Shown here in pieces: positions 34,468 through 42,718 of a stretch of 64,000 bases of DNA. The notes under the pieces were generated by a model. It had not been told where the DNA came from, did no database searches, and worked only from the letters and a program-made list of their open reading frames with translations. The stretch is from Candidatus Cloacimonadota bacterium (GTDB taxonomy: Bacteria > Cloacimonadota > Cloacimonadia > G963667145): assembly GCA_963667255.1 (NCBI GenBank), contig OY762940.1, forward strand, positions 1,376,001 through 1,440,000, read 5' to 3'. The translations under genes and the position numbers were made by a program. Every line of letters starts with the position of its first letter. Position 1 is the first letter of the stretch.

Positions 34468-36117
34468 CTAAAATCTGCTCGACTTCAAAAGTTCTTCAGC
34501 CTTCTCGGTAGCAGTTTTAAAATTGTCAAAAATCAACTCCTCAGCGACCAAATCCGTCAAATTATATTTAATCAACTCGTCTTTCACTTCGGCATTCACA
34601 CCAGAAATAATCACAGAGATATTTTTCTTCCGCAAAATAGACAAAACATCGTGCAGGTTACGCAGACCAGTCTGGTCGATAAACGAAACATGACGCATCC
34701 TGATAATCAGCACCTTGCATTTTAGCCCTATCTCCTCTATCGCCTCGGAATAAGTTCTGGCACAGGCGAAAAACAACGGTCCGCTTATTTCGTAAATTTT
34801 TATCTTTTGTGGCAAATCGGAATAGTTGTCCAAAAGGTCGTTGTCCACAACATCGTCAATCCGCTTTTCACTGATATCTGCCATCCGCTTCATAAAAAGT
34901 AACGCCGACAAGATGACGCCAATCTCAATTGCCAAAGTCAAATCAAAGAGGACGGTAATAAAAAAAGTCGTGAGCAAGATGAGGACATCAAAATACGAAC
35001 TTCGCAAAATAGCCACAAACGACCGCCATTCGCTCATATTATAAGAAACTACTATCAAAATTCCAGCCAAACACGACATGGGAATCAACTTCGCCCAACG
35101 ACCAAGAAAGAGCATAATCAGGAGCAAAGTAACGGCGTGAACCATACCCGAAATCGGTGTTCTTCCACCGTTTTTCACATTCGTGGCTGTGCGGGCTATC
35201 GCTCCGGTAGCGGGGATTCCTCCGAAAAAAGGCGTAACAATGTTTGCAATCCCTTGTGCAATCAACTCCGTATTGGAACGATGTTTACCGCTAATCATTC
35301 CGTCGGCTACCACAGCCGAGAGCAGAGACTCTATGCCACCAAGCAAGGCGATAGTGAGAGCAGGTGCGATGTAATTGTGCAAATCGGCAAATCTGACAGT
35401 CGGAAGAGCAAAAGCGAAACTGTTTGGTATAGAGCCGAAAAACGACTCTATCGTCGCCACATCGAGTTTGCAAAAATAGACCAACGGCGTAACGATGACA
35501 ATCGCCAAGAAAGAGCCGGGGATTTTGGAAGTGATTTTTTTGGAATAGAATGTTATCAAGATTGTGAACAGAGTGATGGCAAACGCAGTCCAATTTATCT
35601 GTGTAATATTAGCGAAATACACGAGCCATTTCTGATGAAAAACTGACGGAACTTTGGCAATATTCAGCCCCAGAGCGTCTTTGATTTGCGTGGAAAAAAT
35701 CGTCACGGCAATCCCGCTGGTAAAACCGACTATCAGAGAATGAGGGAAAAATTTGAGCAATGTTCCCATCTTGAGCAATCCGAAAAGTATCAAAATCACT
35801 CCGGCTAAAATGGTGGAAATGATAAGCCCGTCCACTCCATAACTCTCGACAATACCGTAAACTATGACAATGAAAGCACCAGTCGGACCGCCAATCTGCA
35901 CACGGCTACCACCAAGAAAGGAGATGATGAAACCCGCAACAATGGCGGTAATCAGCCCCTTCTCAGGAGAGACACCAGAAGCCACAGCAAAAGCAATCGC
36001 CAAAGGCAAAGCAACGATGCCAACTACTATTCCCGACAGGATGTCAGCGACTATCTGCTTTCGCTCTATTCCCGCCTTTAGCACGGTAAAAAATTTTGGT
36101 TTGAAAATTGTATTCAT
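34468..36117 (-). CDS. sulP: SulP/SLC26 anion transporter with STAS domain
   Basis: VALPLAIAFA, QIGGPTGAF, GAIARTATN, GPLFF, IDQTG. Confidence 0.92.
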   Translation of the reverse strand: MNTIFKPKFFTVLKAGIERKQIVADILSGIVVGIVALPLAIAFAVASGVSPEKGLITAIVAGFIISFLGGSRVQIGGPTGAFIVIVYGIVESYGVDGLIISTILAGVILILFGLLKMGTLLKFFPHSLIVGFTSGIAVTIFSTQIKDALGLNIAKVPSVFHQKWLVYFANITQINWTAFAITLFTILITFYSKKITSKIPGSFLAIVIVTPLVYFCKLDVATIESFFGSIPNSFAFALPTVRFADLHNYIAPALTIALLGGIESLLSAVVADGMISGKHRSNTELIAQGIANIVTPFFGGIPATGAIARTATNVKNGGRTPISGMVHAVTLLLIMLFLGRWAKLIPMSCLAGILIVVSYNMSEWRSFVAILRSSYFDVLILLTTFFITVLFDLTLAIEIGVILSALLFMKRMADISEKRIDDVVDNDLLDNYSDLPQKIKIYEISGPLFFACARTYSEAIEEIGLKCKVLIIRMRHVSFIDQTGLRNLHDVLSILRKKNISVIISGVNAEVKDELIKYNLTDLVAEELIFDNFKTATEKAEELLKSSRF

Positions 36118-36221
36118 AGCAGTCTTGCAAAAAAATGCTGAAAATATGTAAATCTAATTTAGAAGATTTGTTGGAAGGTGTAAGAAGCAAGGAGACAATC
36201 TTGCTTTGGGCATCACACCTC

Positions 36222-36309
36222 CTCATTCCCACAAAAGCGGGAATCCAGTTGGGTTGGAGCAGGACGCCAACACGAAAAGATGAATGAGTCCCGTCTTCAC
36301 GAGGACGAG
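36222..36309. repeat. Degenerate REP/dRS3-like inverted pair, copy 2
   Basis: CTCATTCCCACAAAAGCGGGAATCCA ... TGAGTCCCGTCTTCACGAGGACGAG. Confidence 0.65.
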
Positions 36310-36393
36310 GGAAGAAGAACAAAAAAACACTGGCGAGTTACCAACTCGACAGTGCTCCGTATCTTTTCATTTTTATTTTTTATCTTTTATTTT

Positions 36394-37527
36394 TCATTTT
36401 CCCACCACTTTTTTGGTGGCTGCTATTTTGCTGTCGGCAAACATTACGACATCTTTTATAACCAGTTTTTGAATGGCGGAAATAAAAGTTTCCATTATAT
36501 TATAGTTTGGCTCGTTGTTTTGAGTTGGGAGATTCATTAATTGATTTGCAATAATATTTACATTAAAGCTTGAACTACCCCAAGAAAATGAACTAAAAGA
36601 TTTTGTCATTGTTGAAATAAAAAATAAAGCATTCAATTTATTGAAATTAGTTGTTTTGGATTTTAAAATTTTTATTTTATCCCCTGTGAAATAAGGCTTT
36701 TCTTGGTAAAACATTGTTGCCGTATCTTGTCCAAAAGAGATTGTATTTCCATTATTCAAAAATTGTTCGTCCTCATTTATATAGCCACGAATACCATTAT
36801 TTAAACTCGTTCTTACAACATAGGGTTTACCAATTTCTGAAATAGAAACCTTGTTAGCATCAAATCTTTTTTTATAAGAATTTATCTCAAACAATTCCCC
36901 AATTGCAAACTCTCCCCACTCAAACTTCTCATTTTCAAAATATCGCAAAACTTCTTGCTCTTTTTGGGTGAGCTCATAATCTTTGAGACCTGTTGTCAAA
37001 AGATAGGCTTCCAGCTCCGCCACTCGCTCCGCTTCCAGCTCCGCTATAAACTCTTCCATAAATTCAAAATCTATTTCGCCATTTTTAGTGGGAAGTTGGA
37101 TTTTGGTTTTATTCATAGCATCACGATTAAATTTATTCCCATAATCATATTGTTTAGAAGTGGAAACTCTACAAGCAGAAATAATAACACTTGCAATAGC
37201 TTTATTAAAAGGTTCAAATTTTGGGACTAAATGTTGAATATGAGAATATCCTATAAAATCATTTTCTTGATAATACATTGTATCTGCTCCTAAAGTTGTA
37301 TCAGAGCAACTGATTGTATTTCCTTTGTTATTTGCTTCCAAATTAGAAAATCCCATTACCCCATTATTAGATGAAGAATTTGAAATCAATGGAACATTAC
37401 CACTTTCAGAAATTATCTCTTCATTTTTTAATTTGTAATATTTTGTCGGATTTATCTCAAACAAATCCCCCAATCTGTATTCTCCCCACTCAACACTTTC
37501 CAGTTTCTCGCTGAGTGGGGAAACTAT
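36394..37527 (-). CDS. Restriction-modification specificity (S) subunit, two TRDs; probably entered by -1 frameshift
   Basis: Repeated EWGE..GxLFEIN conserved regions and two TRD-like blocks; no SD-led start codon near its 5' end. Confidence 0.85.
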   Translation of the reverse strand: MVSPLSEKLESVEWGEYRLGDLFEINPTKYYKLKNEEIISESGNVPLISNSSSNNGVMGFSNLEANNKGNTISCSDTTLGADTMYYQENDFIGYSHIQHLVPKFEPFNKAIASVIISACRVSTSKQYDYGNKFNRDAMNKTKIQLPTKNGEIDFEFMEEFIAELEAERVAELEAYLLTTGLKDYELTQKEQEVLRYFENEKFEWGEFAIGELFEINSYKKRFDANKVSISEIGKPYVVRTSLNNGIRGYINEDEQFLNNGNTISFGQDTATMFYQEKPYFTGDKIKILKSKTTNFNKLNALFFISTMTKSFSSFSWGSSSFNVNIIANQLMNLPTQNNEPNYNIMETFISAIQKLVIKDVVMFADSKIAATKKVVGK

Positions 37528-37533
37528 TTTCCC
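37481..37533 (-). other. Putative -1 programmed ribosomal frameshift signal
   Basis: Slippery G_GGA_AAA (37533-37527), TAG, then 14-bp stem TTTCCCCACTCAGC/GTTGAGTGGGGAGA. Confidence 0.75.
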
Positions 37534-39316
37534 AAGCGGTCGTCCTCGCTTTTTTGAGATTTTAGAATATTGGATACTTCCCAAGCAAGATAATCACTCA
37601 CCGTTTTTTTGAAATCTTGCAAAGTTGGTTTGGTGTCTATGGGAGCAGTTTTGTTCCAATCGGCACCATTTTGTGGGTCAATAGTGCTTTCGTGATACTC
37701 TTTTTCTGTGAAAATATTGAGTTTGTTTTTGCCAAACCGCACCAAATTTACCAACTCTTCATATCTTTCTTTGGCTTGGTTTGTATCTTTCAGGTTATTG
37801 CTGGATTTTTTGCGATTGGTTCTGGTGTAGCCATCGTTGGAAAAATCGATAAACTTCACTACTTCATCTTTGTTGTGAGCCTCGTTCACTCTAAAAACAT
37901 AAACATTGGTTTGTACACTGGATTTGCCAATAAACAAATCTATAGGCATTTTGATACTTGCCAAAAGTGTATGCTTTTGCAAAATCCTTTTGTTGTATTC
38001 TTTGGCTTTCCCACTACCTGCCGAATTTTGAATAATGATTGCTGCATAACCTTTGCTCATCATATTTAGAGCCTTTTCCACAAACACCATTCCGTTGCCA
38101 GGTGCTGAATAAGGAGGATTTAGCACAAAAGCGGTGGCGGGAAATTTATTGTTAGTGTTTCCAAATGCATATTTTCCGTCAAAATCGCTCAAAGAGTTTT
38201 TGTTCAAAATATTGGAACTGCCATCGCCCATCAATATCATATTAAGAACTGCCAACATATAAATACTGGAGAGCAACTCCAATCCAAGTAATTGTTCAGC
38301 TTTTATTTTCAACTCTTTTTGTCTTAATTCATCAGGTGAAGTGATAGTATTTTTGGCATCGTTGAGCATTTCGTTCATCGCAGCTACCAAAAGTCCTGCC
38401 GAGCCTGTGGCAAAATCCCAAACGAAAGAGTCTTTGTTCACTCTGGCAAGTTTTACCAAAAATGAAGCCACATAAGAGGGAGTAAGCACCACATCGTTGA
38501 GTTTGTCTTGAGTAAAGCCAAGCCAACCATACATTTCATTAAAAAGTTTTCCTGTGAAATCAGTAGTTAAGCCGATTTTATAATAAATTCCCAAATCATC
38601 AACAATTTTACTAAAAACTCTTTTTAACTGGCTTTCATCATTCTCAACTTTATTGATATTGTCCGTCAAAAGTGTGTTGGACAATGTTCTAATGATAAGG
38701 TCTTTTTTCTCTTTCGGTAAATCTTTTTCGTTTAGATAAGCACTAACTCTATTGATCATTATATCGCCATCTCGTCCTCCGACATAAGATTGCGACTTTA
38801 ACTCATCTTTTTCCAAAACAGGAACTTTATCAGGAATACCCAAAGTAGCGATAATAGAAGCTGCCACCAAATAAACTCTATCGTTTTCGCCCAAGCCTTT
38901 TTCACTTTGATAAATATCGTTATTGAGTTTTACCAAACTAACATCAATTTCTCTTTCTTTTTGCTCTTTGAGTTTATCAATTTCTTCTTGGCTTAAACTC
39001 AAAGTTTTGACATCTTCAACAAAAGCATCAAAATTTTCTTTTTTCAAAAAAGAAAAATCGGAAAACTCACCTACTTTTTGACCAATACCAAAATTAGTTT
39101 TGGAAACATAATATACTCCAATTTGATATTGCAATTCTCCCATTTCATCTTTGTAGCCCGTCATTCCTATGGCAATAATATCTGTGTATCCAGTATAATG
39201 AAGTATGGCATTTGCATAGTGCACAGCACCATTTACCGCATAAGAATTGATATTTGAAAAATTTGGCTTATTATCAGCTTTTTTATTTTCAACCTGCCCA
39301 TCAGCATTGAGTTTTA

Positions 39317-40427
39317 GGGAGTGTGCAAATAACTGGGTCTGAAATAAGACCTAATTATGTTTGACAGAATAAGTTATGAACATTTATTAAAATGCCATGA
39401 GTATAATCAAAAAAAACGCTGTCCAAATTGTGATAGCTTAAACACAAAAAAGAAGGGATATATTTTCTCTGAAAGAACAACTAATCGTGGGAAAATTAAA
39501 GTCAAAACTCAACGATTTTATTGTAAAGATTGCCAAATAAGTTTTACCAATTTTGGATATAATAAGAGAACTCATTTTGCACCAAAATTCAAAGATAAGG
39601 TTGTTACTGACTATATTTCAACCAAAAGTTCTCTTTCTGAAGTTGCTAAAAGACATGGGATTTGTAAAAATAGTATTCTTAATTGGATACCTCAGCGAGC
39701 TAATTTATATCAGGATAATGTGTTACACAGCAATATAGATGAGACAACAATTTATATTGATGGCAAGGAAATTAAGATAAACGGTAAGCGAAAAGTTGTC
39801 TTAGTCGCCAGTAGCAAACTACTTGATAAACCAATATATTACAAGATTTATGATAGAGAACATAGTAGTTCATCTGAAGACTTTTTGAATAGACTAAAAA
39901 AAATGTATGACAACAAAATAATTGGGATTGTGTCAGATTTTGGGCGAGGGAAGTGCTTTGTTAAGCCAGTTAACCAACTTTTTGAAGATGTTCCACATCA
40001 AATTTGCTTGGTTCATTATTTAAGAAGCGTTAATATCAATGTTCCTAAAACAAAAAAGAGTAAGTTTTTTAGACGAAATATTTTCTTTAAGAACTTGATT
40101 AAGAGCATTTTAAATGCTGAAACTTTACAAGAAGCTGAAAATAATTTAAGTTCGCTTAATCACTATGAAAAATTTTTTCGCCTAAAAATTCATAAGCGTT
40201 TTATTAAATCAATTAATCGAAACTTTGGTTTATTAACTGCTCATTTTCATTACGATTTTTTGGATAAAACAACAAATAAAATTGAAAATATTAATCGACA
40301 ATTGAATAGGAAATTAAAAAATTTAGACGGATTTAAATCTGAAAAAAATATGAATCATTTTTTGAAAATTTGGTTCAATAATTATTCAAAAGGAGTGGAA
40401 ATTAGACCCAATTAAATGCACGCTCCC
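39317..40427 (+). mobile_element. IS256-like insertion sequence, 1111 bp
   Basis: 24-bp imperfect IRs (39317-39340, 40404-40427; 20/24 match) and 8-bp target duplication GAGTTTTA (39309-39316, 40428-40435). Confidence 0.93.
39357..40415 (+). CDS. DDE transposase (Mutator/IS256-like) with N-terminal Zn finger and HTH
   Basis: CPNC...CKDC, IDG, VSD, CLVH, TTNKIE motifs. Confidence 0.9.
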   Translation: MFDRISYEHLLKCHEYNQKKRCPNCDSLNTKKKGYIFSERTTNRGKIKVKTQRFYCKDCQISFTNFGYNKRTHFAPKFKDKVVTDYISTKSSLSEVAKRHGICKNSILNWIPQRANLYQDNVLHSNIDETTIYIDGKEIKINGKRKVVLVASSKLLDKPIYYKIYDREHSSSSEDFLNRLKKMYDNKIIGIVSDFGRGKCFVKPVNQLFEDVPHQICLVHYLRSVNINVPKTKKSKFFRRNIFFKNLIKSILNAETLQEAENNLSSLNHYEKFFRLKIHKRFIKSINRNFGLLTAHFHYDFLDKTTNKIENINRQLNRKLKNLDGFKSEKNMNHFLKIWFNNYSKGVEIRPN

Positions 40428-40765
40428 GAGTTTTACAAGTTTATCTTTATAACCTTTGTATTCAATAAGAATAGAATAAGACTTGGAATTTTTATCTTTC
40501 AAAAGTAATTTTGCATCAGGACGATTTGCTCCGCTTCCACCATTTTTAGTAAAATAATCAGTAAGAGCTTTATCAATTTCAGAGTTTAAAGATTCTTGCT
40601 CTAATTTATAATCTAATTTGTAGGATTTAAGCCAACCATTCGCTAAGTCAGCAATATTTGGTTCTATTGATTTTGCCATATTACTCCCTCTTATTTATCC
40701 AATTTTTTTAACATTTTAAAACGATATTTCTATAAATAAAATTATTCCCAAAAATCTTCCTCAAC

Positions 40766-42718
<1,953 letters not shown>

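Follow-up and report, generated by a model that had tools for sequence, protein, structure and literature searches.

Comparison of the RM-S junction with its counterparts in other genomes indicates that it is, with a probability of roughly 0.9, a programmed −1 ribosomal frameshift signal joining an RM gene to the specificity (S) frame directly downstream. From an intact copy, free RM and an RM-S fusion would both be produced, and S would likely come from the fusion alone. Frameshifting by −1 is a known mechanism, and the RM-S junction is apparently an undescribed setting for it; to our knowledge, few chromosomal bacterial genes use −1 frameshifting.

The RM-S junction and the interrupted RM gene

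We examined the junction within a window of 64,000 nucleotides, the whole stretch of DNA analysed here. Read from the sequence, the RM frame ends on the minus strand with TTG GGA AAA TAG, and both this end and the heptamer G_GGA_AAA, as claimed in the first-pass annotation, are present at 37533-37524. The junction comprises the following features:

36394..37533, minus strand: frame of the specificity (S) part, in −1 relative to RM; reads 379 aa counted from the heptamer; holds two recognition domains; lacks a conserved start
37481..37494, minus strand: 3' arm of the stem, with its core conserved at 37494-37484; encodes V-E-W-G in the S frame
37510..37523, minus strand: 5' arm of the predicted stimulatory stem; conserved core 37520-37510; from folding and homologue comparison
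37524..37526, minus strand: TAG stop of RM, which makes up the first three nucleotides of the 6-nt spacer
37527..37533, minus strand: slippery heptamer G_GGA_AAA (X_XXY_YYZ), the last two RM codons, Gly-Lys
37544..37547, minus strand: SD-like GAGG, candidate second stimulator on weak evidence; ends 10 nt upstream of the heptamer

Recomputation agreed with the stem proposed earlier, 14 bp pairing 37523-37510 with 37494-37481 and including two G-U pairs, whose C-rich core begins 6 nt past the heptamer. The 74-nt junction region folds at −28.3 kcal/mol (z = −4.86), and none of 200 shuffles was equally stable. An Rfam search of 36000-41000 returned nothing up to E 1. SD-like pairing of −4 kcal or better precedes the heptamer in 34 of 75 loci compared with 12% of 375 control places, a signal that may reflect acidic linker codons.

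The −1 frame of the window reads GKIVSPLSEKLESVEWGEY and is open to a stop at 36396-36394. It matches Methylase_S in two stretches and the PADLOC model Specificity_II (PDLC03593) over 5-378 (E = 5e-37). Its first ATG, at 37356, lies far downstream as had been claimed, although the distance from the heptamer's first base is 59 codons and not about 55. The same annotation had described S as having no SD-led start; none is conserved, but the window itself contains two TTG codons in this frame, one at 37473 preceded by GGAG at a distance of 8 nt and one at 37584 that has a weak SD. Neither TTG is conserved among homologous loci. More generally, no S start codon or SD is conserved among homologues, so that the independent S start which might have overturned the frameshift reading, and with it S as a separately initiated subunit, was not found there. 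Within the central conserved region of S, a 14-bp sequence on the minus strand is directly repeated (37044-37031 and 37020-37007; period 24 bases; ELEAERVAELEAYL), and this repeat resembles the spacer-length repeats of Type I S subunits. Separately, low-depth contigs skip about 375-395 bases inside S.

An indel error hiding a single ORF had been named as a possible refutation. The contig from X1 and X2, two runs of a single sample that is probably the source, shows zero differences from the window over 36906-39341, and a 151-nt contig from X3, a second sample of the same study, shows zero differences over 37429-37579; because contigs from two samples agree with the window, there is no assembly indel at the junction. 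The X1/X2 contigs also contain a joint, 36869/39312, that skips 2442 bases at about half the locus depth and has a short side of only 25 letters. This joint is possibly an IS-adjacent deletion or another IS copy.

The RM gene starts at 40679 and is split after codon 84 by an IS256-like element, which was missing from the earlier description of the gene:

37524..39308, minus strand: 3' portion of the RM gene, encoding a gamma-type N6-adenine methyltransferase (N6_Mtase; DFATGSAG ahead of NPPY) followed by the C-terminal tail
39309-39316 and 40428-40435: 8-bp target duplication of the IS256-like element
39317..40427, plus strand: IS256-like element in the RM gene; 1111 bp; transposase 39357-40415; 24-bp inverted repeats
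40428..40679, minus strand: 5' part of the RM gene, 84 codons; PD...EYK nuclease-like motif (by eye); VRR_NUC just over cut-off; PDLC03616 positions 4-97

Both RM pieces match the PADLOC model PDLC03616 (REase_MTase_IIG), the 3' piece with E = 4e-210, and the gene as it stood before the insertion combines a nuclease and a gamma-class N6-adenine methylase in one chain. A PDB sequence search with the RM piece gave no match and no BsaXI chain. Members of the IS256 family have a Mutator-type transposase, terminal inverted repeats and an 8-9 bp target duplication. The transposase here passes Pfam Transposase_mut (45.1 over 21) and scores 58 bits with the NCBIfam IS256 model, under its cut-off of 150, so that the element is called IS256-like. 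It went through a recent burst: the 1.59-Mb genome carries 17 full-length copies that are 99.7-100% identical.

Because the element splits the RM gene, full RM and RM-S chains are impossible in this genome, and the lengths given in the first-pass annotation, 678 aa for RM and 1055 aa for RM-S, hold only with the IS discounted. The RM copy is thus a pseudogene whose signal is intact. Past the element the RM frame is open from 39350, and a GTG at 39224 (39224-37524) could serve as an internal start for a nuclease-less methylase of 566 aa that would still be able to frameshift. Three of five genomes of the same genus (G476, G479 and G480) have an open RM frame of 681-690 codons together with the same cassette.

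Slippery site, register and stem among relatives

Searching GTDB genomes with the final 358 residues of RM gave 309 relatives, of which the best 80 were analysed; since the query has Gly-Lys at its end, matches with that ending may be slightly favoured among the best 80 of 309. Together with the window, this first set held 76 split loci, 4 fused loci and 1 locus truncated by a contig end. S lies in −1 in all 76 split loci and a perfect X_XXY_YYZ heptamer is present in 75 (G_GGA_AAG 53, G_GGA_AAA 21, A_AAA_AAG 1), ending at TAG in 47 and TAA in 28; the sole exception, L046, reads G_CGA_AAG and has the same stem. Within the same genes, G_GGA_AAR accounts for 5 of 296 other Gly-Lys pairs. The codon preceding the heptamer ends in G in 74 of the 75 loci, the remaining one being the A_AAA_AAG locus.

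Loci were added from 7 of 11 plasmid records, from 50 of 55 places in 54 of 401 genomes of one order, and from 10 viral contigs, giving an enlarged set of 142 distinct loci after five duplicates and L140 (contig end) were dropped. A perfect heptamer with S in −1 occurs in 115 of them (G_GGA_AAG 71, G_GGA_AAA 28, C_CCA_AAG 12, A_AAA_AAG 2, A_AAT_TTT 2), and the named frameshift loci carry 14 phylum labels. All heptamer replacements (C_CCA_AAG, A_AAA_AAG and A_AAT_TTT) are slippery forms, though they encode other residues; the 12 C_CCA_AAG junctions are near-identical and represent one or two events, not independent ones. The other 27 loci comprise 13 fusions, 8 with an ordinary S start, 3 broken fusions (L098, L103 and L132), 2 near-heptamers (L046 and L114, both with stems) and 1 without S. 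A single register, 37 nt to a Trp anchor, is kept in 74 of 77 loci. At the 8 loci with an ordinary ATG or GTG start, S is in +1 or 0 and no conserved stem is present. One of these, L136, carries GGGAAAA ahead of its stop, yet S is in +1 and begins with GTG, and the stem is missing; the heptamer by itself can therefore arise by chance. The homologue alignment suggested as a check on the original claim thus finds three elements kept, namely a slippery heptamer, S in −1 and a stem whose pairing is preserved, and the widespread absence of heptamer or stem that would have counted against it is not seen in the enlarged set.

Several groups of loci (L106-L110 versus L118-L124, L017/L018 versus L130/L131, and L149 versus L150/L151) share a near-same C-terminal tail and junction and differ in their methylase cores, which are ~70-90% versus only ~45% like the query. 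As judged from these sequences, there are two exchangeable RM core types behind a near-same tail and junction. On a Lactobacillus gasseri plasmid (L084; 1-780, 1439-4640) two tandem RM+S pairs are present, with ordinary S starts annotated in both. Public annotation gives frameshift-type S genes differing invented starts (L081:3586, L087:3571), and the table has none for L082.

The 11-bp stem core, in a fixed register 6 nt past the heptamer, is paired in 823 of 836 cells across 76 distinct rows, compared with 37-52% of cells when the register is slid. Changes within the stem are mostly one-sided (C-G to U-G, A-U to G-U); at pair 14:36 we counted C-G 26, U-G 26, U-A 23 and C-A 0 (Fisher p = 9e-6, with kin not independent). 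Third codon positions of the S frame track the pairing, indicating that the stem constrains synonymous sites: C is found in 76/76, Val is GTT in 73/76 versus 694/1394 elsewhere, and the third base of Glu/Lys is G in 75/76 versus 779/4083 elsewhere in S. In 72 of 73 loci the real junction folds more stably than its synonymous recodings; this start and recoding set leaves out three loci whose S frame is shorter than 60 aa. A second W-G repeat inside S folds more weakly in 17 of 17 cases (−3.1 versus −18.5 kcal). Mean fold is −5.9 kcal for fusions (8 anchored of 12) versus −18.7 kcal for frameshift loci (102 of 110), and where S has a start of its own the five anchored loci range from −1.4 to −4.7 kcal; the fusions have a similar protein at the junction yet a weak stem. 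The diverged loci L111, L113, L114, L117, L126 and L127 have different stems at the same distance from the heptamer.

Lysine tRNAs and alternatives to the probable ribosomal frameshift

According to passages of PMC5009743, slippage at the dnaX site is due to weak pairing of AAG with the only lysine tRNA. We located lysine tRNAs by a pattern search of 76 genomes, dropping three without any detected lysine tRNA and L046. Of the 20 genomes with AAA sites, 13 had a detected tRNA-Lys(CUU), versus 8 of the 52 with AAG sites (Fisher p = 8e-5), with 7/20 AAA and 8/52 AAG genomes running counter to the pattern, many genomes incomplete and kin not independent. Codon bias is opposed to this distribution, the AAG share of the RM genes themselves running the opposite way (median 0.25 in the AAA group versus 0.12 in the AAG group). 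This genome has both lysine tRNAs detected and an AAA site, and in three C_CCA_AAG genomes only the UUU tRNA-Lys was found. Although weakened by incomplete genomes and kinship, the pattern points to the ribosome rather than the polymerase.

A quite unlikely alternative is translational coupling, in which ribosomes stopping at TAG would open the hairpin and initiate again on S, at a codon that is close by or non-standard, giving free S as in BcgI. The candidates are TTG 37473 behind GGAG, an ATA overlapping the stop, and a TTG just before the heptamer. Coupling draws some weight from the position of that GGAG, an SD inside the 3' arm of the stem, and from the 8 BcgI-like loci that do have a true overlapping S start. 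However, 11 of 72 loci have a TTG at the place of 37473 and 37 of 72 have any start codon within nine codons after the Trp, and initiation at that TTG would lose the conserved W-G-E-F/Y motif. Before the conserved Trp, an ATG, GTG or TTG occurs in 36 of 73 loci, spread over 12 positions (ATG in 5/73, a strong SD in 1/73); an S-frame stop lies no more than 4 codons upstream of the heptamer in 46 of 73, and the codon overlapping the stop is ATA or GTA. Coupling also leaves unexplained why the X_XXY_YYZ form is kept while the heptamer residues change.

Transcriptional slippage sites have a long homopolymer run, 8 or more A/T. The longest run at this junction is 4 A, the contigs contain no length variant, and the single register together with the tRNA-Lys pattern argues for translation. 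Phase variation is common in RM genes, and H. pylori S has a poly-G tract further inside in the source passages, but we still regard restoration of one frame by transcriptional slippage or DNA phase variation at the junction as very improbable. Least credible of all is a sequencing error or decayed fusion in which heptamer and stem would be by-products of protein sequence. Fusions do exist, three of them broken, and the window copy is itself a pseudogene; against this, the same stop and register recur in 115 loci, the contigs of two samples agree, and both the synonymous-site constraint and the recoding controls contradict the by-product view.

Enzyme make-up, known systems and H. pylori

In the proposed programmed frameshift, the ribosome would pause on meeting the stem 6 nt further on, its tRNA-Gly and tRNA-Lys then occupying GGA AAA, and these tRNAs would re-pair one base back on GGG AAA, entering the S frame; non-slipping ribosomes would terminate at TAG and yield free RM. 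One free RM and one RM-S would then give 2RM:1S, which would require about half of the ribosomes to slip. By analogy with BcgI-like enzymes, we put at slightly better than even the odds that partial frameshifting serves building a 2RM:1S enzyme. An efficiency of 50% is doubtful at this AAA site, since passages of PMC5009743 report that an AAA second codon slips far less than AAG in E. coli in an A_AAA context.

Alternatively, the frameshift may be real but low-level, keeping S scarce, so that the enzyme would be an RM-S oligomer like TstI and free RM would be surplus or regulatory; we consider this possible but would bet against it. The 13 fusions lie at several places among the frameshift loci in a FastTree tree with weak support, and since these loci are fully fused, free RM is not always encoded. 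These natural fusions of ~1055 aa are colinear with the predicted product (anchor spacing mostly 34-38 versus 35 in the window), and given their existence RM-S joining is tolerated at the junction; a PDB sequence search with one of them, P0034, found only a Type I M subunit. The single-chain enzyme TstI works as a homotetramer according to PMC4027205, which, taken with the fusions among frameshift loci, suggests that free RM may be dispensable. Also listed with the low-level reading is a statement in passages of PMC4081073 that free RM chains may aid BcgI cleavage. On the other side, the frameshift state outnumbers fusions by 115 to 13 in this sample, and 2RM:1S is the make-up reported for BcgI-like enzymes in passages of PMC3874165 and PMC11997821.

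Like the BcgI / BsaXI-type IIB (IIG) enzymes of (RM)2S form, the locus has a nuclease and gamma-methylase chain with a two-domain S directly downstream, a likeness to BcgI drawn from domains, models and gene order and not from sequence comparison with BcgI. In those enzymes S is a separate subunit, whereas here it has no conserved start and is likely present only fused to RM. AloI, CjeI, PpiI and TstI carry RM-S as one polypeptide, as in the predicted shifted product, but encode no free RM, while a frameshift locus would supply a second RM. Natural hsdM/hsdS genes show translational coupling and have a real start. For EcoKI, an engineered M-S fusion cleaves in vitro only with extra free M (passages of PMC3510504); this is the mix expected from partial frameshifting, although artificial. 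With the −1 frameshifts of E. coli dnaX, the IS3 family and phage tail chaperones, the junction shares the X_XXY_YYZ form, Lys as second codon, a 3' stem and perhaps a 5' SD. The dnaX (tau/gamma) frameshift shortens the chain, whereas here the −1 shift would lengthen it by a whole recognition subunit of a defence enzyme. The likeness to dnaX includes dependence on the lysine tRNA set as described in passages of PMC5009743.

In H. pylori, BcgI-like S genes follow the stop "without a potential start codon" in the words of PMC3936762, passages of which call the systems inactive, treat the start-less S as a defect and add an RBS and ATG to it. There the native systems of 26695 and J99 were inactive, both also having a frameshift inside S, and HP1471/1472 was still inactive after all edits; the plasmid rows examined from that paper include no construct with the native joint and full-length S. 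By eye, its HP1472/1471 joint primers show C_CCA_AAG at the RM end and a GGCCCCCTTAAT stem arm at the S start. HP1472/HP1471, Hpy99XXII and HpyUM032XIII likely belong to the same family, the joint primers resembling L106-L110 and L118-L124, with the H. pylori heptamer C_CCA_AAG in place of the window's G_GGA_AAA. Placed in the frameshift family by description and not by comparison of junction sequences, the BcgI-like HpyUM032XIII natively methylates 2319 of 2320 sites (99.96%) and needs S1 according to passages of PMC4450513, in which "start codon" does not occur and a start-less S is not discussed. Phenotypes of HP1471 mutants are reported in passages of PMC4209511 that do not discuss initiation.

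A search of the open-access literature, with subscription papers, patents and REBASE notes outside its scope, turned up no description of a frameshift where RM meets S. The word "frameshift" is absent from the available passages of PMC3874165, PMC4081073, PMC11997821 and PMC7379913. In the available parts of GeneTack (PMC3711429), with supplement file 1 outside scope, the main text and two supplements name no RM-S cluster, and a "DNA methylase" cluster is listed in the phase-variation table.

We give even odds to a broader proposal, namely that a widespread BcgI-like clade makes 2RM:1S by near-50% frameshifting, that its site has been retuned to host lysine tRNAs after horizontal transfer (AAG where only tRNA-Lys UUU is present), and that it has repeatedly collapsed to single chains. 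The clade would represent a third state between the BcgI-type and AloI/CjeI-type enzymes, and would explain an active start-less S in H. pylori. If the frameshift reading is correct, S genes of the RM-S frameshift family are mis-annotated with invented starts or missed, and cloning S with an added start alters the enzyme. The family would also offer a natural intermediate for the balance of RM and recognition domains in single-chain Type IIB enzymes, whose 1RM:2TRD ratio is called a mystery in passages of PMC3874165, and more than 100 natural slippery-site variants for studying how tRNA sets affect frameshift sites.
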